Below, piece after piece: positions 4,823 to 16,202 of a DNA stretch of 39,757 nucleotides. This DNA is from Patescibacteria group bacterium. GTDB taxonomy: Bacteria > Patescibacteriota > Minisyncoccia > UBA6257 > GWB1-50-10. A program made the position numbers and the translations under genes. The stretch lies in NCBI GenBank assembly GCA_030018585.1, contig JASEHZ010000003.1:1-39757 (forward strand). The letters are read 5' to 3'. The notes beneath the pieces were generated by a model. That model was not told the origin of the DNA. It made no database searches and saw only the letters and a list, made by a program, of their open reading frames with translations. The stretch's first letter is position 1. Each line of letters opens with the position of its first letter.

Positions 4823-5587
4823 CTACTCCCCAAGATATGCTTCAACTACCTCCTTTTTCTTGAGCACTTCTTCTGGTTTGCCTTCAGCTAATAATTTGCC
4901 GCTATCCAAAACAAAAACATGATCGCAAAGCTCACGGATTAAATTCATATCATGCTCAATTAAAATCACGGTTTTGCCTTGAACACGCAATTCATTTACA
5001 ATCGCTGCTATGATTTTTGCCATTTCCCGGAAAATCCCGGCAAACGGTTCATCAAAAAGATAAATTTCCGCATTCATGGCCAGCGCCCGGGCAATTTCCA
5101 AGAGTTTCCGCTGGCCATAAGAAAGGTTTTTAGCAAGTTCGTGACGCTTTTCCCACAAGTTCACACGACGCAAAATTTCCTCGGCCCTTTTCAAATGAAA
5201 ATCACTATGTTTTTCAAATAAAGAACCAAACACATTTCTTTCGGTCAAAACAATCAGGATATTGTCCAAAACCAGCATTTGATTAAAAAGCCGAACATCT
5301 TGAAAAGTCCGGGTTATGCCGTAAGAAGAAACCTCGTAAGATTTTACTTTTGAAAGCCACACGCCGTCAAAAGAAACCTTTCCATCATCAATTGGCAAGA
5401 TACCACTTAACGCGTTAATGAGCGTTGTTTTGCCAGAACCATTAGGCCCCACAATGCCAGTCACCTTCCCTTTCTCAATCGTAATTGATAAGCCGTCAAC
5501 CGCATACACTCCGCCAAAGTGCTTTACTAAACCCCGTACAACAATTGCAATTGGTTTAATATAATTTGATTCAGTTTGATTTTCCAT
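4823..5587 (-). CDS. livG: Branched-chain amino acid ABC transporter ATP-binding protein
   Basis: FGGVYAVD, GPNGSGKTT, RTFQ, LSYGQRKLLEIARALA, V.EAYLG. Confidence 0.9.
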   Translation of the reverse strand: MENQTESNYIKPIAIVVRGLVKHFGGVYAVDGLSITIEKGKVTGIVGPNGSGKTTLINALSGILPIDDGKVSFDGVWLSKVKSYEVSSYGITRTFQDVRLFNQMLVLDNILIVLTERNVFGSLFEKHSDFHLKRAEEILRRVNLWEKRHELAKNLSYGQRKLLEIARALAMNAEIYLFDEPFAGIFREMAKIIAAIVNELRVQGKTVILIEHDMNLIRELCDHVFVLDSGKLLAEGKPEEVLKKKEVVEAYLGE

Positions 5588-5674: not shown

Positions 5675-6808
5675 TTATTCATACTTCACAAACTGACCAT
5701 TTTTTACGGTTTTTACCACAATAGGAATTACTGGATCGCCATTTGAATCAAATTTTATTAAACCGGATACACCATCATAACTCGTTGCATATAATGCTGT
5801 TTTAATACAATCGGTATTAACGCCACATTCTTTTAGAGCGTCGGCGATAATGTAAACCGCATCATACATCAAAGGTGCAAAACCACCAGTTTCAACATTA
5901 AATTTATCTTTATAAGCCTTCATATAAGCTATTGTCTTAGGATTGCTAGTTTGCGCCAGAAAATGATAAGGATAAATAACCCTCTCGGCTAACCCCCTTA
6001 AATCTTCAACTAATTTCTGATTTTCAAATGGCGGACCAGCCAAAAATTTAGTTTTCAAACCCAATTCACTCGCCTGCTTGATAACCATTGATTGTTCTTG
6101 ATAACCACCGATAAAAAGAGCATCTGGATTTTTTGCTTTTATTTTTGTAAGCTGACTTCTAAAATCCTGATCACCCTGCGCGTAGCTTTCCTCGGTAATA
6201 ATTCTACCGCCTAATTTCTCTGCCTCACTTTTTACGGTATCTCTTAAAGCAATGCCGAATTCGTTATTTATATAAATTGTCGCAATGTTTTTAAGCTTAA
6301 GTTCTCTGATTACAACTTTCATAAGTTCAGCAGAATAATAAGAAGCTGATGGCTGTATTCTAAAAATGTAATCACCGGCACTGCTTATTGCCGGCGCAAT
6401 GGCCTCTGCCATAACAATAACTTTTGCTTTCTCGGCGATTGGCGCATTTGCTAAAACAACACCCGAGACCCAAGAACCCAACACAATTGATACTTTATTA
6501 ACGTCAACTAATTTTTGCATAACGCTGGCACCGATTTTTGCATCCGCCTGATCATCTTCATATACAACTTCTAAATTCTTACCATTAATACCCCCCCCCC
6601 CCGCACTATTTACTTCTCCACGAGCAAGCTCAATAGCATTTTGTATTTCCTTGCCATAAAATTCATTCTTGCCACTTAACGGTAAAACTGCACCAATCTT
6701 GATAGTTTCATTCGAAACCGGTTTATTGCCCACGAAATATACAATCACAACGACTACAATAATACCTACCACCCACCACCATATATTTTTTGATTTATTA
6801 GTTTCCAT
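5675..6808 (-). CDS. LivJ/LivK-type ABC substrate-binding protein, N-terminal membrane anchor
   Basis: IKIGAVLPLSG, GING..LEVVYEDD, DFRSQLTKIK, YDAVYI, GVSG.IKFD.NGD. Confidence 0.88.
   Translation of the reverse strand: METNKSKNIWWWVVGIIVVVVIVYFVGNKPVSNETIKIGAVLPLSGKNEFYGKEIQNAIELARGEVNSAGGGGINGKNLEVVYEDDQADAKIGASVMQKLVDVNKVSIVLGSWVSGVVLANAPIAEKAKVIVMAEAIAPAISSAGDYIFRIQPSASYYSAELMKVVIRELKLKNIATIYINNEFGIALRDTVKSEAEKLGGRIITEESYAQGDQDFRSQLTKIKAKNPDALFIGGYQEQSMVIKQASELGLKTKFLAGPPFENQKLVEDLRGLAERVIYPYHFLAQTSNPKTIAYMKAYKDKFNVETGGFAPLMYDAVYIIADALKECGVNTDCIKTALYATSYDGVSGLIKFDSNGDPVIPIVVKTVKNGQFVKYE
6591..6602 (-). repeat. G12 homopolymer within the binding-protein CDS
   Basis: 12 consecutive C on plus strand, encoding AGGGGING. 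Confidence 0.9.
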
Positions 6809-6831: not shown

Positions 6832-6972
6832 CCCAGTAGTAGAAACTCGATTAATTTTTATTTAATGAAATTCGACTTGTTTTATAACTCTTGTATTTTA
6901 TGCCCATTTTCGTGATTTCTCGAAAAATCTTTTATTCGCCTGTAGCGAAACAATCGAGTTTTCACTACTGGG
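6832..6972. mobile_element. Empty MITE-like element, 21-bp imperfect terminal inverted repeats
   Basis: cccagtagtagaaactcgatt (6832-6852) / aatcgagttttcactactggg (6952-6972), 19/21 match; ttttt on both sides. Confidence 0.6.
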
Positions 6973-7092
6973 TTTTTGACCTTTTTCTGCTTCTGCTATT
7001 TCCGCCGACTAAACGGAACGCATGTTTTTTACCCCCACACCATAAGATAAATTATAACTTATACTCTCCCATTAATCCTTGCGGACGGTAAA

Positions 7093-7376
7093 CCCCCACA
7101 CCAAATTTATTTTAAACTCTCCACTAATCTCTTTTTGAGTTGTGTAAAGGCTCGACTTCGAAGTTTTGGGCTTGATTCTCTGCGTCGAGCGTCCGACTCC
7201 GCTTTGTACGCCTCGAAACACAACAACTCAAAGGGACAACGAGTTTTTGTGGAAAATATTTTTCCACTATTATGCTCTTGAAGTCGTCGTCTCAAATCAT
7301 TAATCGAACCAATATAAAATTTATCGTCTTTCAAGTTTTTTAAAATATAGACGTAGAACATAATTTGGTGTGGGGG
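7093..7376 (-). mobile_element. Inverted-repeat-bounded GIY-YIG cassette 1
   Basis: acccccacaccaaatt (7092-7107) / aatttggtgtgggggt (7362-7377) perfect; taaa direct repeat at 7089-7092 and 7377-7380; extra arm copy at 7028-7042. Confidence 0.7.
7107..7361 (-). CDS. Small GIY-YIG nuclease (UPF0213/SLX1-like)
   Basis: FYVYIL...FYIG...DLRRRLQEHN...RE motif set. Confidence 0.85.
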   Translation of the reverse strand: MFYVYILKNLKDDKFYIGSINDLRRRLQEHNSGKIFSTKTRCPFELLCFEAYKAESDARRRESSPKLRSRAFTQLKKRLVESLK

Positions 7377-7383
7377 TAAAGCA

Positions 7384-8250
7384 TCATAATTTATATTCCC
7401 CGATCAGACCCTGAGGTCTATATAACATTAACAGCATCAATATAATCCCGTAAATCACCTGACGCATTTGAGCTGCAATTTCATTAGGCATGCCCACAAA
7501 GCGCAAAATTTCCGGAATTAAAACCAAAAATATCGCGCCCAAAATTGAACCGCGCAAATTCGCAAGCCCGCCCAAAATAATTATTGCCAAAATAAAAATT
7601 GATTCGTTTAAAGTAAAAGTTGACGGGTCAATAAAAGAAATATAAGCCGCGAACAAAGAACCAGCCACAGCTGCTATAGCTCCGCCAATAACAAAAATAG
7701 AAAGCTTATAATGATGGGTATTATAACCGAAAACCTGCAATGCTTTTTCGTCTTCCCGAATACCTTTTAAAACTCTGCCGAAAGAAGAATCAACAACAAA
7801 ACAAGATATAAAATAAACAAGGACTGCAAATAAAACAACCAACATTAAAAATATCAGATTCTCGGAAAAATTAATGCTAAAAATGTTTGGCCTTGGAATT
7901 CCTGGAATACCAAGCGGCCCGCGAGTTAAATCCTGCCAATTCAAAAAAATACTGAAAATAATCACATTAAAACCGAAAGAACCTAAAGCATAATAATCAT
8001 CTTTAAACCGGTTTAAAATCATACCCACTGCAAGCGCAATAATACTGGAAACAATAACTCCTATCAATATAGAAACAAAAAAACTCACTCCAAGTTTTGT
8101 GGCAAGAATTGCTGTAGCATAAACGCCAATGCCGTAAAAAGCCGCGTGAGTAACAGATAAAAGCCCCGTATAACCCACAACCAAATTCAAGCTCAAACTT
8201 AAAATCACATAAATCGCTATAAGGATTGCTAAATGTATTAGATATTCCAT
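7384..8250 (-). CDS. livM: Branched-chain amino acid ABC transporter permease
   Basis: SLNLVVGYTGLLS..HAAFYGIG, LTRGPLGI, S.FGR.L..IREDE, RPQGL.G. Confidence 0.9.
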   Translation of the reverse strand: MEYLIHLAILIAIYVILSLSLNLVVGYTGLLSVTHAAFYGIGVYATAILATKLGVSFFVSILIGVIVSSIIALAVGMILNRFKDDYYALGSFGFNVIIFSIFLNWQDLTRGPLGIPGIPRPNIFSINFSENLIFLMLVVLFAVLVYFISCFVVDSSFGRVLKGIREDEKALQVFGYNTHHYKLSIFVIGGAIAAVAGSLFAAYISFIDPSTFTLNESIFILAIIILGGLANLRGSILGAIFLVLIPEILRFVGMPNEIAAQMRQVIYGIILMLLMLYRPQGLIGEYKL

Positions 8251-8507
8251 CCCGTACGAAACAGGAAACGCTTTAAACGAGATTTAATAAAACGTTTTCC
8301 TCCTCCTGATTTTAAATATAACTCTCTCGACCTTGCATCGTCTTGATCAATACAAGCCTCATAATAAATTAATTTGAACGGACCTCGTCCTTTTGTATAA
8401 GTTGACTTGCCATCATTATGTTCTTTAAAACGCTTCCGTAGATCATTTGTATACCCAGTATATAATTTACCATTTTTTAAACTCTTCAAGATATAAACGT
8501 AAAACAT
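8238..8507 (-). CDS. Small GIY-YIG nuclease (UPF0213/SLX1-like); probable start ATG 8507, upstream ATG 8534 is the duplicated livM start
   Basis: MFYVYILKS...LYTGYTNDLRKRFKEHN...RELYLKSGGG. Confidence 0.88.
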   Translation of the reverse strand: MFYVYILKSLKNGKLYTGYTNDLRKRFKEHNDGKSTYTKGRGPFKLIYYEACIDQDDARSRELYLKSGGGKRFIKSRLKRFLFRTGWNI

Positions 8508-8529
8508 GTCTGATTTGTTTCGTACGGGA
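8250..8529 (-). mobile_element. Inverted-repeat-bounded GIY-YIG cassette 2 inserted at the livM start codon
   Basis: atcccgtacgaaaca (8249-8263) / tgtttcgtacgggat (8516-8530) perfect; tccat direct repeat at 8246-8250 and 8530-8534. Confidence 0.8.
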
Positions 8530-8535
8530 TCCATA

Positions 8536-9396
8536 TTATTTATTGATTAACCCGCGAGGACGGAAAATCAGAAAAATTATCAAAAGCGCAAAAGCAATCG
8601 CGTCTTTCCACTCGCCGGAAATCTGCCAAATACCGAAATTTTCCACAAAGCCCAAGAAAAACGCTCCAAGGACACCACCATAAACGCTGCCAATGCCGCC
8701 GATAATTGACGCAATCACGCCCTTTAAAAGCAAGCTCATACCCATAGTCGGCTCAATACCCGTATCAAAACCAACCAAAATACCGGCAAGTCCGGCAATC
8801 GCCGAACCAATAAAAAATACCCGGCCAATAATTCGGTTGGTATTAATGCCAACAATTTTTGCCACTTCTTCGTTATCGCTTGTTGCCACAATCGCTTTAC
8901 CGAAAGAAGTTTTTTTAAACATAATTAAGAGTCCAGCCATAATAACAATGCCGCACAAGAAAATAATTAACTGGGTTTGGGTAATGATACCGCCAAAAAT
9001 TTCATAAGTTTTTTCAAAACCAATGTTCCGCGAAAGCGTTTGAAATTGGCTCGAAAATAGAATCGCAATGATCGCCTGAATCACAGTAAAAGCTCCAAGC
9101 GACGCCACCAGAAGAACCATGTTTGAAGCTTTTCTTTTCCGGAGCGGTAAATAAACAATTTTATCCAAAAGATAGCCGATAAATCCGGCAACAAAAATTC
9201 CGGCGACAACACTCAAATAAATATCAACTCCAAGCATCTGCGCTAAAAAGAAAACAATATAAGCGCCCACGGCCGCTAAAACACCGTGAGCCAAATTAAA
9301 GAACTTGGTCGTGCTATAAATCAAGTTAAATCCAAGCGCAACCAAAGTATAAATTGAACCGGCAATAATGCTATTTAAAATAAGTTGAGGCAACAT
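8536..9396 (-). CDS. livH: Branched-chain amino acid ABC transporter permease
   Basis: GSIYTLVALGFNLIY...NLAHG, IIGGIGSVYG, FRPRGL. Confidence 0.9.
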   Translation of the reverse strand: MLPQLILNSIIAGSIYTLVALGFNLIYSTTKFFNLAHGVLAAVGAYIVFFLAQMLGVDIYLSVVAGIFVAGFIGYLLDKIVYLPLRKRKASNMVLLVASLGAFTVIQAIIAILFSSQFQTLSRNIGFEKTYEIFGGIITQTQLIIFLCGIVIMAGLLIMFKKTSFGKAIVATSDNEEVAKIVGINTNRIIGRVFFIGSAIAGLAGILVGFDTGIEPTMGMSLLLKGVIASIIGGIGSVYGGVLGAFFLGFVENFGIWQISGEWKDAIAFALLIIFLIFRPRGLINK

Positions 9397-9453: not shown

Positions 9454-9481
9454 ACCCAGCCATTCCATGGAATGGCTGGGT
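9454..9481. terminator. Perfect 28-bp palindrome; probable terminator or REP-like hairpin after the binding-protein gene
   Basis: acccagccattccatggaatggctgggt; minus-strand tail TTCGTTT. Confidence 0.6.
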
Positions 9482-9518: not shown

Positions 9519-10691
9519 TCACTTTTCTGTATATAATTCACTTTTCCCTCCTTTTATAATCAAAACTTTAAAATCTACATTTTTTACTTCCCTATCAGCA
9601 CCAAATTCAATCACCGGCATACTCTCCGCTCCTTTATAAACGGTTTTTGCTAACTCATCAATTATTGCTTTATGATCAGTGCCAACCCTACCAATCACCT
9701 GAGCAAGAATTTTTATGGCATCGTAAGCAAAAGCCGCAAATGATTGATAAACTTCTTTTCCAGCAAAACTATTAAGTTTTTCCCTAAATACCGGCGAATC
9801 ATAAGTTTTAGCAACTGTATACAATACACCTTCAGCTTCTTTAACGCGCCAGATTTCCTCGCCATCAAAGGCATCGCCGCCGACAATCGGAACATTAACC
9901 GCTAATTCTTTTAATTGCTTGATGGCAGCAGAACCACTTGCTGGATAAAGCGCAGTATAAACAACATCAGGCTTGGCAGCTCTTAATTTTGTAACTAAAG
10001 TTCTAAAATCTTTAATATCTTGAGCAACCCCTTCGTCAAATACTACTTGCCCGCCCAATTCTTTAAAACGATTCACAAAAACTTCATTAATCCCTTGACC
10101 CCAATCATTTTTCACATACAAAACTGCAACTTTTGTTTTCTTTAAAGTGTTAAAGATATATTCAGCCGCAAATTTTCCCTGAAAAGCATCGGAAAAATAA
10201 ATTCTGAAAATATGATCGCCAATTTTCGTCAGATTCGGCGCCGAAGCTGTTGTAATTACAACCGGCAGATTATTTTTTTGAGCCACTGGCAATCCAGGAC
10301 CAGCCGCTGCCGAACAAACCGGGCCAATCATTGCTACTACCTTATCGATTTCTGCTAATTTAGTAATCGCATTTACGCCTTTTTTTGAAGTACAGGTGTC
10401 ATCCTCAATAATAAACTCGATTTTCCTTCCATTAATGCCGCCGGCGTCATTTACTTCTTTTACAGCCAATTGCGCGGCAGCAGCTACAGCCTCGCCGTAA
10501 CTTGCCGCCTCACCAGTCATTGGAAAAGAAGCGCCAATTTTAATTGGGCTAGTATCGGCTGCTACTCCAGTTGGGTTTGTTGTTGTGGTATTTCCTCCAC
10601 CTAATGTGGCTAAAAGGTAAATAATACCAGCAAGAACTACCACCATTATTACCCAAAGCCATGTCTTTGATTGTTTTTCTACGGTTTCCAT
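9519..10691 (-). CDS. LivJ/LivK-type ABC substrate-binding protein
   Basis: IKIGASFPMTG, AGGINGRKIEFIIEDD, IGPVCS, YDAIKI; N-terminal TM. Confidence 0.88.
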   Translation of the reverse strand: METVEKQSKTWLWVIMVVVLAGIIYLLATLGGGNTTTTNPTGVAADTSPIKIGASFPMTGEAASYGEAVAAAAQLAVKEVNDAGGINGRKIEFIIEDDTCTSKKGVNAITKLAEIDKVVAMIGPVCSAAAGPGLPVAQKNNLPVVITTASAPNLTKIGDHIFRIYFSDAFQGKFAAEYIFNTLKKTKVAVLYVKNDWGQGINEVFVNRFKELGGQVVFDEGVAQDIKDFRTLVTKLRAAKPDVVYTALYPASGSAAIKQLKELAVNVPIVGGDAFDGEEIWRVKEAEGVLYTVAKTYDSPVFREKLNSFAGKEVYQSFAAFAYDAIKILAQVIGRVGTDHKAIIDELAKTVYKGAESMPVIEFGADREVKNVDFKVLIIKGGKSELYTEK

Positions 10692-12846: not shown

Positions 12847-13241
12847 GCTGTTTTTGACTAAAATTTCAAGCCCAATTGCAGCGCAGAAAATTTAGCTGCG
12901 AATTTGAGCACCGAGCACATAAAACATAAAACCAGTGTTCGATATTTCGACTTGTTGATTTGTATTATTAAAATTGATGAATATCATATGTTATCTTTAG
13001 TAATTTATGTGCTCGGTAAGTCACCGCACTATCCCGACTCCGACTGCGGTCGGAAGAGGTTTAGGTGCGCGATCCCGCACCCTCCTGAACCCATAATCTT
13101 ATCATCTCTTTACGGGCTCGGGAAGTGCGGGATCCTCGCACCTTCGACGCTCATTCCATTCGCGGGAAGGTGCGGGAGTTTTGTCTATAAAATTACTTCT
13201 TCGCCAGCTGGCGAATCGTAATTTTATACAAAGCCCTTACT
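12841..13241 (-). promoter_or_regulatory. Candidate structured cis-regulatory RNA upstream of rplQ (copy A)
   Basis: Multiple perfect stems and colinear motif conservation with 15520-15802. Confidence 0.65.
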
Positions 13242-15525: not shown

Positions 15526-15802
15526 GCCGATTATGTATAAATTTTCGAGTCTGTAGACGATGAAAATTTATCTACAGAATCGAGCACCCCGCCCTTTTGC
15601 TTTCGTGAATTTGAATCCTGAAACAAAGCAAAGCGGAGCCCAGCACTACAACTTCGTTGTAGTGCTGGACGGAGCGATCCGACTTCGTCTTTATTTTTAT
15701 ATGTTTTCATAAATATTGCCATAAAAGGGCGGGGTAAGGTTTGATTAATAAATTTTCTGTTTCGTCAGCTGACGAATTGAAAATTTATATCAAGCCCTTA
15801 CT
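15520..15802 (-). promoter_or_regulatory. Candidate structured cis-regulatory RNA upstream of rpsM (copy B)
   Basis: Multiple perfect stems and colinear motif conservation with 12841-13241. Confidence 0.65.
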
Positions 15803-15916
15803 TTAACCTTGCCTTTGTTTATGTTTGGGATTCTGACAAATAACATAAACGCGCCCTTTGCGGCGAACTGTCTTGCATTTCATACAAATCTTTTTTACTG
15901 ATGATCTTACTTTCAT
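15803..15916 (-). CDS. rpmJ: 50S ribosomal protein L36 (missing from the ORF track, 37 aa)
   Basis: Manual translation [37 protein letters not shown]; CxxC...C...H zinc ribbon. Confidence 0.97.
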
Positions 15917-16042
15917 CCCTCACCCTTTGAGAATCATTAAGAATAATTCTCTTATAAAATATTGACCTTTTGTTATATTGATTATAGTCATAAATAAATT
16001 TGGATAAATAACCCTGGAAAAGAATCCTCAAAGGGTGAGGGA
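15916..16042. mobile_element. Empty MITE-like element abutting the rpmJ start codon
   Basis: atccctcaccctttgag (15915-15931) / ctcaaagggtgagggat (16027-16043) perfect 17 bp; flanks ttca / ttcg. Confidence 0.6.
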
Positions 16043-16202
16043 TTCGTCCCTTTTATCGATTTGGATAAATGCTTAGTATTCATAACATAAATTTTATAAT
16101 TTGGTTTTGGTTGTTTCTAGCGGGTTCATTCCCCACAAAAAATACGAACGCTAAATTGCTTCAAAACAAAATATCCGCAAAAATCTTAATTGTACAATCT
16201 GT

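Follow-up and report, generated by a model that had tools for sequence, protein, structure and literature searches.

A miniature insertion sequence-like element of Patescibacteria, probably mobilised by its own GIY-YIG nuclease

A short GIY-YIG nuclease gene and the perfect inverted repeat that encloses it, referred to here as cassette 1, probably constitute a complete miniature insertion sequence (IS)-like element of CPR bacteria, whose ends are read and mobilised by its own nuclease. Comparison of the locus with its relatives shows insertion of the whole unit, duplication of the target, co-inheritance of gene and ends, compensation within the stem, and the existence of gene-less derivatives. 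We infer that mobilisation is the work of the nuclease encoded by the element itself, acting on a hairpin that the ends form in single-stranded DNA.

The window (the whole stretch of DNA analysed, 39,757 nt) is contig C25 of a 682-kb genome that is 99.5% complete, has 37.5% G+C, and is assembled in 43 contigs. Relatives recovered by searches with the cassette 1 nuclease (GIY1) are labelled Patescibacteria/CPR. Cassette 1 lies in a minus-strand operon for a branched-chain amino-acid transporter, assigned by Pfam, which in operon order reads as follows.

9519-10691, minus strand, binding protein gene (Pfam)
8536-9396, minus strand, livH, permease (Pfam), with cassette 2 next in operon order
8250-8529, minus strand, cassette 2, sister element with ends TCCCGTACGAAACA, on the livM start codon; 4-bp duplication TGGA (mRNA strand)
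7384-8250, minus strand, livM, permease (Pfam), between cassette 2 and cassette 1
7093-7376, minus strand, cassette 1, putative mobile element; 284 bp from C-run to G-run, 286 bp with the outer A/T pair
gap of 300 nt after cassette 1 in operon order
6832-6972, minus strand, gene-less derivative of a third element type, 141 bp; arms match those of cassette G000:C30:21856-22161
5675-6808, minus strand, second binding protein gene (Pfam), after the 300-nt gap
4823-5587, minus strand, ATPase gene (Pfam)

No Rfam family, intron families included, and no tRNA was matched in the window, and a promoter scan gave no excess (6 found, 6.8 expected). A reading of the arms as rho-independent terminators was dropped, as no T-run follows either arm and the terminator scan lists none at the arms.

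The arms of cassette 1 form a 16-nt inverted repeat (7092-7107 and 7362-7377; 100% complementary, 254 nt apart) that frames the ORF exactly, as the initial annotation had described. On the mRNA (minus) strand the 5' arm ends immediately upstream of the ATG (7361-7359), and the last base of the stop codon TAA (7109-7107) is common to the 3' arm. The TAAA reported at both CCCCC/GGGGG ends was also found on the plus strand (7089-7092 and 7377-7380; TTTA on the mRNA strand), just beyond the C and G runs. The alternative pairing proposed for a third arm is equally real, with 7028-7042 being 100% complementary to 7366-7380 over 15 nt.

7377-7380, minus strand, target-site duplication, upstream copy (TTTA on the mRNA strand, TAAA on the plus strand)
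7362-7377, minus strand, 5' terminal inverted repeat, ACCCCCACACCAAATT on the mRNA strand, abutting the ATG
7107-7361, minus strand, GIY-YIG nuclease ORF, 84 codons (stop counted in the coordinates), matching PF01541
7092-7107, minus strand, 3' terminal inverted repeat, AATTTGGTGTGGGGGT on the mRNA strand, with one base in common with the stop codon
7089-7092, minus strand, target-site duplication, downstream copy
7028-7042, minus strand, third arm, which repeats the 3' arm and is perfectly complementary to the 5' arm over 15 nt

The edge of the element is ambiguous by one base, in that the outer A...T can be assigned either to the repeat or to the 4-bp duplication. The core CCCCCACACCA, with at most one mismatch, occurs three times in the window, always at the cassette 1 locus, against an expectation of 0.16; none of 100 shuffles reached three. 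With DNA parameters the region folds better than its shuffles (z -2.9). The minimum-free-energy structure joins the 5' arm to the third arm and the centroid joins it to the nearer one.

GIY1 matches PF01541 over residues 1-71 (E 3.1e-14; 53.5 bits against a cut-off of 22.6). It retains Y3, Y5, G18, R26, H30, and K66, which are invariant in an alignment of 70 sequences, as well as Y16, E50, R61, and E62, which are at least 90% conserved there; the Y/G, Arg, His, and Glu positions presumably have catalytic roles. Identities to relatives at the three codon positions are about 0.68, 0.80, and 0.38, and show long-term purifying selection on the nuclease. The AlphaFold2 model (mean pLDDT 90.3) consists of strands at residues 2-9, 15-20, and 44-52 and three helices. 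In Foldseek searches the model lay nearest to the UPF0213 protein BH0048 (1zg2, the top match), the catalytic domain of At-HIGLE, and Slx1, with I-TevI and UvrC further away, and the best structural matches (1zg2, 7wme, 7cq2, 6seh, and 4xm5) were GIY-YIG domains of the Slx1/HIGLE/UPF0213 kind. The nearest solved proteins by sequence were a UPF0213 pair, 1zg2 (BH0048; E 5.8e-7) and 1ywl (EF2693; E 7.4e-4), and the group I intron endonuclease model TIGR01453 matched weakly (25.6 bits against a cut-off of 56). Slx1 and HIGLE are nucleases of branched DNA, and by analogy the modelled fold would fit an enzyme that reads the base of a hairpin.

The motif RESSPK, in place of RELYLK, had been taken as a possible sign of decay, which the comparison with relatives does not support. 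The clade motif is RE[SKH][NS]LKLRSRAFTQLKKR (consensus RE[SKH][NS]LK), so that RESSPK is near normal and only L65P is odd (Leu in 36 of 40 relatives), and the ORF is of full length with all invariant residues in place. In 5 of the 45 columns conserved in the clade GIY1 deviates, which is more often than 29 of 37 rows do. We read this as a mild excess rather than decay, although the copy may be weakly impaired.

Evidence that cassette 1 is an insertion comes from the sequence on either side of it. Removing the cassette together with one TTTA joins 8 nt (7377-7384) to 37 nt (7052-7088) and produces a 15-codon frame in which one residue differs from the last 15 codons of LivM.

7381-7384, minus strand, livM 3'-end relic, upstream piece (4 nt plus the upstream copy of the target-site duplication), overlapping the livM stop (7384-7386) by one base
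7052-7088, minus strand, livM 3'-end relic, downstream piece (12 codons and the stop), between the 3' arm and the third arm

The relic begins on the final base of the livM stop codon and differs from the working livM end at 15 of 45 nt, 11 of them at third codon positions. Because the differences are mostly at third positions, with one amino-acid change, both copies of the livM end must have evolved as coding sequence, in different lineages; the working end is closer than the relic to livM of the relative G040 (10 versus 14 differences). As excision restores a livM-like frame, the target of cassette 1 was ordinary coding-type sequence containing TTTA and not a palindrome. Since the cassette lies in a foreign-looking livM 3'-end relic after the livM stop, it probably entered this genome with a piece of a former host's livM, by recombination and not by fresh transposition. 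The third arm, 9 nt past the relic stop, may mark the far end of the imported piece, which we offer as conjecture. A similar arrangement was seen at L087, whose nuclease is 69% identical to GIY1 and which also has TTTA: a gene ends in its stop, and after it comes a diverged relic of that gene's own 3' end, with the cassette dividing the relic in two. Additionally, L025 lies at the frameshift site of prfB, where 56 nt from the 5' part of the gene are perfectly duplicated, and L160 and L147 have flank duplications too. We conjecture that cassettes often arrive with a fragment of a former host gene, via recombination with one illegitimate junction. No exact empty site for cassette 1 was obtained from relatives, of which 4 of 40 have livM; the region of the nearest (G040) is not collinear with the window, because livM overlaps livG there and the second livK is absent.

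For cassette 2 the comparison is direct. This element (ORF 8238-8534) lies between the livH stop and the livM start and has its own perfect 15-nt repeat (8249-8263 and 8516-8530), the sequence of which is unlike the cassette 1 arms. G040 is the nearest relative having the operon (LivM 73% identical), and it reads stop, 1 nt, ATGGA, and onward as livM without an insert; in the window these letters recur, interrupted by 280 bp of inserted sequence and with TGGA present twice. What appears as a 98-codon ORF in cassette 2 results from reading of the duplicated host ATG in frame through the arm into the nuclease. A further case is L012, the closest relative of GIY1 (70% identity), which has the same arms with TTTA on both sides and splits an OmdA/YdeI gene, the downstream half of which fits positions 8-60 of the Pfam profile from its first residue. 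As read from these junctions, the arms of cassette 1 are shown to be the element's own ends, and arms and ORF to have been inserted as one unit. The idea that the ORF sits in a pre-existing palindrome of the host did not survive, as neither the reconstructed empty site of cassette 1 nor the G040 site has a palindrome. A host palindrome as the target was accordingly rejected, on the strength of these palindrome-free sites and of the 4-bp duplications found around bare palindromes.

We compared cassette 1 with related loci, 53 from genomes and 80 from metagenomes, of which 126 were analysable; they were found with GIY1 as the only query, and the sample is therefore skewed to its own clade. The flanks of these relatives are unrelated and do not represent one homologous site, and the ends of cassette 1 recur at such sites. 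A bracketing repeat, defined as one of at least 12 nt that is longer than in any of 60 shuffles, was present in 50 of the 126. By this shuffle test the other 76 had none, including the close relatives L083, L088, L089, L092, and L016; several of the unbracketed loci have tandem or solo arms instead. Among 45 non-redundant elements, 14 have an exact 4-bp duplication at their ends and 31 do not; when the right flank was displaced by 10 nt as a control, the number fell from 14 to 1. The duplications included TTTA (three times), TAAA, ATAA, CACA, TGTG, TCAA, CCCG, TGAA, TGGA, and TGAG. TTTA flanks L012, L087, and L091 and the gene-less copies L067, L079, and L080, and given its recurrence in the clade it could be a target motif or a part of the element rather than a duplication. 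CACA, TGTG, ATAA, and TCAA occur as duplications beside it.

The ORFs of these elements were on the same strand as the neighbouring gene in 25 cases versus 10 upstream and 21 versus 10 downstream, and thus opposite to their neighbours in about 30% of cases. Such opposite-strand insertions are compatible with mobility and weaken any account based on expression by the host. Only 6 of the 45 related elements, counting all types, rebuild an ATG; the cassette 1 clade favours TTTA and has no tie to start codons. The window's own genome has six GIY-YIG copies, five of which are bracketed. Four have perfect repeats of 15-21 nt with four different sequences, a fifth (on contig C30) is bracketed at 18 of 20 positions in arms aligned and read by eye, and the sixth (on C34) has an in-frame TGA and adjoins a tRNA-Tyr gene.

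Arm type follows the nuclease tree. On a maximum-likelihood tree of 51 bracketed nucleases (a quick search over 85 columns, with only 2 starred branches), the 18 arm groups require 17 changes, and no smaller number is possible; when the labels were shuffled the average rose to 25.7, and so low a value was reached in 0 of 200 shuffles. One branch of the tree has all 25 rows with CCCCCACAC-type ends, the row of the window among them, on the same side; cassette 2 is placed with the TCCCGTTAGAG type, and the copies on C24 and C30 stand together. The association between nuclease phylogeny and arm type that the initial annotation had proposed to look for was therefore found, and it shows, as far as such a tree can be read, that arms and nuclease gene travel as a unit. 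Co-inheritance of this kind is not proof that the protein reads the arms, because any common descent would produce it. With arm type tracking clade, and with empty sites available for cassette 2 (in G040), for cassette 1 (by reconstruction), and for L012 (within the OmdA gene), the proposal that cassettes 1 and 2 were inserted independently and have element-specific ends is upheld. The accompanying statement that their arms are unrelated is not wholly borne out: the sequences differ, but a C-run opens the arms of every type, and for each type gene-less relatives are present in the genome.

Members of the GIY1 clade have a nearly invariant outer CCCCCACACC, while the inner 5-13 nt vary freely and remain complementary within each element. 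The inner-arm changes are thereby shown to be compensatory, as judged by the pairing within each element; a covariation table anchored on ACAC mis-registers 6 of 25 rows (L082, L085, L101, L015, L102, and L112).

Arms of this type also occur without the gene. The pattern CCCCCACACC ... GGTGTGGGGG, with 0-340 nt between, was found in 13 of 400 other genomes of the phylum, compared with 0 for a reversed-pattern control. These gene-less forms are bare palindromes of 27-44 nt, copies of 57-133 nt, and one of 279 nt. The ORF-less palindrome that had been predicted exists in near-identical form, CCCCCACACCAAAATTTTGGTGTGGGGG, in three of these genomes (G213, G132, and G266), and 29-nt bare palindromes were found in G290 and G125. 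In one copy (G076:C7:64911-65013) the CCCCCACACC arms enclose a tRNA gene. Gene-less copies are flanked on both sides by TTTA, TAAA, TTAA, or CAAG, and because they have these 4-bp flanking duplications of their own, the bare palindromes are small mobile copies and not unoccupied targets.

In the window's genome each cassette type has gene-less relatives. The interior of the 141-bp element at 6832-6972 is about 60% like the last ~65 nt of the C30 cassette ORF, in aligned rows read by eye, and because this decayed 3' part of an ORF is retained, the element appears to reflect a deletion rather than an unoccupied state. The cassette 2 type has 19 copies, 18 of them gene-less (72-126 bp), and 9 of the 19 have an exact 4-bp duplication. 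In 16 copies an ATG arises where the last A of the element meets the flanking TG, and the frame that begins there passes a threshold of 50 codons (129-1011 codons in these 16). One arm type encloses whole tRNA genes, ~95 nt of unrelated DNA, or an ORF.

In the mechanism that we propose, the element would consist of two terminal repeats of 15-16 bp, a 4-bp target-site duplication, and a single gene for an 84-residue, single-domain GIY-YIG protein. Its ends would pair into a hairpin whenever the DNA is single-stranded, as in replication or uptake. A structure-specific nuclease would recognise the conserved base of the stem and cut there, a 4-nt staggered break at an NNNA/TTTA target would take in the element, and host ligase and repair would complete the insertion. 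It is possible, though we give it somewhat less than even credence, that the cassettes represent a new class of autonomous DNA transposons in prokaryotes, the smallest at ~285 bp, with a bare 84-residue Slx1-like GIY-YIG nuclease as sole enzyme recognising the hairpin of its own ends. Such a class would spawn MITEs and bare palindromes, carry tRNA cargo, and sit on start codons and gene ends while leaving host genes intact.

Alternatively, the element may be moved in trans by another enzyme, such as an unrecognised transposase, or by host recombination or uptake, with the nuclease as a passenger that aids persistence, for example by cutting incoming or empty-allele single-stranded DNA like Ssn. 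We know of GIY-YIG enzymes only as hydrolases of DNA, with no strand-transfer step, and 4-bp duplications are a typical product of DDE transposases. The position of cassette 1 and L087 inside foreign-looking relics of a neighbour's 3' end also points to arrival by recombination, and Ssn nucleases, in the available part of the account, cut single-stranded DNA beside repeats and modulate transformation rather than transposing (PMC11893778). Nevertheless, DDE (PF01609, PF13358, and PF00665), Y1 (PF01797), and TnpB (PF07282) families had no matches in this 99.5%-complete, 43-contig genome, which holds dozens of such elements, although an unassembled transposase could lie in the contig gaps. Arms and nuclease also co-vary, and GIY-YIG matches number 5-10 per genome in five genomes with these arms compared with 0-4 in five genomes without them, both being small samples. 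On this evidence we consider mobilisation by another enzyme unlikely. An order of events in which a palindrome or hairpin came first and the nuclease gene later entered its centre (homing into the loop, perhaps after the tip was cut), so that the arms are target halves and the ORF is later cargo, strikes us as similarly improbable. It would account for the bare palindromes with the same arms in G213, G132, G266, G290, and G125, for arms that abut ATG and stop exactly, and for the single arm type that holds tRNA genes, unrelated DNA, or an ORF, as well as for the tRNA gene in G076. Against it, the empty sites of cassettes 1 and 2 have no palindrome, so that arms and ORF arrived together, and the bare palindromes have 4-bp duplications of their own. 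Nor would repeated invasion of unrelated hairpins give the minimum number of arm changes on the tree, and the decayed ORF at 6832-6972 suggests deletion, not vacancy.

We regard as very unlikely a third account, in which the arms act mainly in RNA, as a long-range stem around the nuclease message in the liv transcript (for RNase III processing or masking of the start), and the gene has been domesticated. Several observations agree with such a stem: the compensatory inner-arm changes, the position of the 5' arm over the spot where a ribosome-binding site would be, the excess of same-strand neighbours, the folding score, and, in cassette 2 and the C24 copy, a host ATG that is in frame through the arm into the nuclease. 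However, complementarity is equally needed for a DNA hairpin, there is no Rfam match, and the target duplications, empty sites, gene-less copies, and opposite-strand insertions are left unexplained. An RNA stem can also be a side property of a mobile element and not an alternative to one. Our preferred reading therefore remains that of an IS-like element mobilised by its own nuclease.

Of the traits of insertion sequences and MITEs, cassette 1 has terminal repeats, a target duplication, and an empty site and lacks a transposase of a known family. Bacterial MITEs, such as the Correia/NEMIS elements of Neisseria, are short, have terminal inverted repeats and short target duplications, and lie in transcribed intergenic space, a description that the gene-less copies of 72-141 bp fit. 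The known MITEs, to our knowledge, derive from DDE insertion sequences, whereas the full-length partner of the copies described here is ~285 bp and encodes only a GIY-YIG domain. REP/REPIN sequences and their RAYTs offer another likeness, with few coding copies between inverted copies of an abundant gene-less repeat and a repeat type for each nuclease clade. RAYTs, however, are Y1/HUH tyrosine enzymes (PF01797, 0 matches in the genome) and the cassette enzyme is a GIY-YIG hydrolase, and REPINs, as far as we know, make no target duplication.

Homing endonucleases of the I-TevI/Seg kind are also selfish GIY-YIG genes, and the weak TIGR01453 score and the fold similarity to I-TevI recall them. 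They have a DNA-binding domain and return to one homologous site, whereas GIY1 is a bare catalytic domain of 84 residues (Pfam match at 1-71) and its relatives are found at unrelated sites, with inverted ends of their own and target duplications. The best likeness in structure and sequence is to the Slx1/HIGLE/UPF0213 (YhbQ-type) proteins, whose action on branched DNA would suit recognition of a hairpin base. These are cellular repair enzymes, Slx1 needs Slx4, and we know of none that is mobile or framed by inverted repeats.

The closest published system to cassette 1 is, going by the available part of its description, that of the Ssn nucleases with their NTS/dRS3/SRM hairpin repeats, small GIY-YIG nucleases of single-stranded DNA whose genes are flanked by hairpin repeats of their own (Chenal et al., Nat Commun 2025, PMC11893778). 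The authors themselves liken the NTS-ssnA-NTS layout to an insertion sequence and also draw a comparison with REP/RAYT. The two systems have in common a small single-domain GIY-YIG gene, its own repeat on both sides, many gene-less repeats, and clade-specific variation. They differ in that the Ssn flanks, as described there, are separate self-folding hairpins of ~30 nt, whereas the flanks of cassette 1 are two strands of one stem that encloses the gene. The 4-bp duplications, empty sites, and start-codon targeting of the cassette elements are not met in the available part of the Ssn account (PMC11893778). Likewise, Ssn is assigned to cd10448 by the paper itself (PMC11893778), and the nearest solved sequences to the cassette 1 nuclease are UPF0213 proteins. 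Neither dRS3 (ATTCCC-N8-GGGAAT) nor the NTS core stem had a match in the 682-kb genome. GIY-YIG ORFs have also been reported from CPR rRNA insertions that, in the part of the report available, are neither group I nor group II introns (PMC11270868), and a preprint (10.64898/2026.09.22.753630), in its available part, uses Ssn loci only as a benchmark. In the literature covered, no bacterial GIY-YIG element with terminal repeats and target duplications was described.

The 2025 Ssn/NTS discovery is extended to what is probably another branch of GIY-YIG proteins, and the target duplications and empty sites add direct evidence of insertion. Self-mobilisation by the nuclease, if real, would represent transposition chemistry new to prokaryotes, performed by a hydrolytic GIY-YIG domain with neither a DNA-binding domain nor a strand-transfer enzyme, and would lower the minimum size known for self-sufficient mobile DNA. 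It would also account for much of the palindromic "junk" between CPR genes, where intergenic space is scarce, and for many unannotated GIY-YIG ORFs of 80-100 residues. Nucleases of this sort, each clade reading its own 10-nt stem base, could find use as DNA cutters with specificity for both structure and sequence. For annotation, the 98-codon ORF of cassette 2 is to be read as a host start codon joined to the nuclease by way of the arm, and the livM relic could be mistaken for a small gene.

At the rearranged livM-ATPase junction of the window's own genome (G000), cassette 1, a relic of the livM 3' end, the third arm (an extra copy of the cassette's 3' arm) and a 141-bp inverted-repeat element have all accumulated. 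A second binding-protein gene (window 5675-6808) lies between livM and the ATPase gene there; in the relative G040, by comparison of this interval with locus L008, the stop codon of livM and the start of the ATPase gene overlap. Two of the features at this junction are as follows.

Window 7052-7088 and 7377-7384: livM relic, the last 15 codons, in frame but diverged, immediately 3' of the livM stop.
Window 6832-6972: inverted-repeat element of 141 bp, with 21-nt arms that are 90% complementary.

The relic is interrupted by cassette 1, and nearly every difference between it and the working livM copy is synonymous. A related cassette at L087 (positions 1-480) is found in a matching arrangement. 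Upstream of the second binding-protein gene, 23 nt away, is the 141-bp element, which retains a decayed ORF end in its interior and has arms matching those of the GIY-YIG cassette on contig C30. Three more inverted-repeat elements in the window carry no gene, and there is also a palindrome in the interval that separates livH from the binding-protein gene upstream of it.

Window 12910-13017: gene-less inverted-repeat element, arms ACCGAGCACATAAA, matching a cassette on contig C1.
Window 15586-15735: gene-less inverted-repeat element, arms ACCCCGCCCTTTT.
Window 15915-16043: gene-less inverted-repeat element, arms ATCCCTCACCCTTTGAG.
Window 9454-9481: perfect palindrome of 28 nt with zero loop, ACCCAGCCATTCCA|TGGAATGGCTGGGT.

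Complete tRNA genes (Ala, Asp, Glu, and Thr) are enclosed by CCCCGCACY...RGTGCGGGG arms at four sites in G000.

Contig C40, 19922-20030: arm-bracketed tRNA.
Contig C40, 5078-5226: arm-bracketed tRNA.
Contig C12, 1328-1495: arm-bracketed tRNA.
Contig C34, 1424-1537: arm-bracketed tRNA.

Outside the arms, the flank on each side resembles half of a further tRNA of similar type, and we therefore read these sites as a tRNA-carrying element nested within a relic that looks like a tRNA. None of the outer tRNAs at the four sites was called by ARAGORN when introns were allowed. A sixth GIY-YIG copy (locus L006, C34 6423-6632), with a TGA in frame, is directly upstream of tRNA-Tyr (C34 6308-6395), and on its far side the 5' part of tRNA-Tyr is partially duplicated. 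The tRNA with a 305-nt intron that ARAGORN calls across the whole region in intron mode is probably an artefact.

At L019 (781-1140), a related cassette is inserted into a tRNA-Ala gene, in the acceptor stem, with CCCG duplicated, and the cassette's terminal G-run rebuilds the tRNA 5' end. Another (L025, 650-1200) is placed precisely at the programmed-frameshift site of prfB (CTTTGAC); because the 5' part of prfB is duplicated (56 nt, perfect), the gene still has an intact start after the element. At L095 and L097, the nuclease ORF itself (601-885) contains an in-frame insert of 11 residues, along with arm-like motifs, and the insert may be a tiny hairpin element that has gone into the nuclease gene. 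Short ATCCC...GGGAT hairpins number ~30 in the window's own genome, several with a CCATGG centre.
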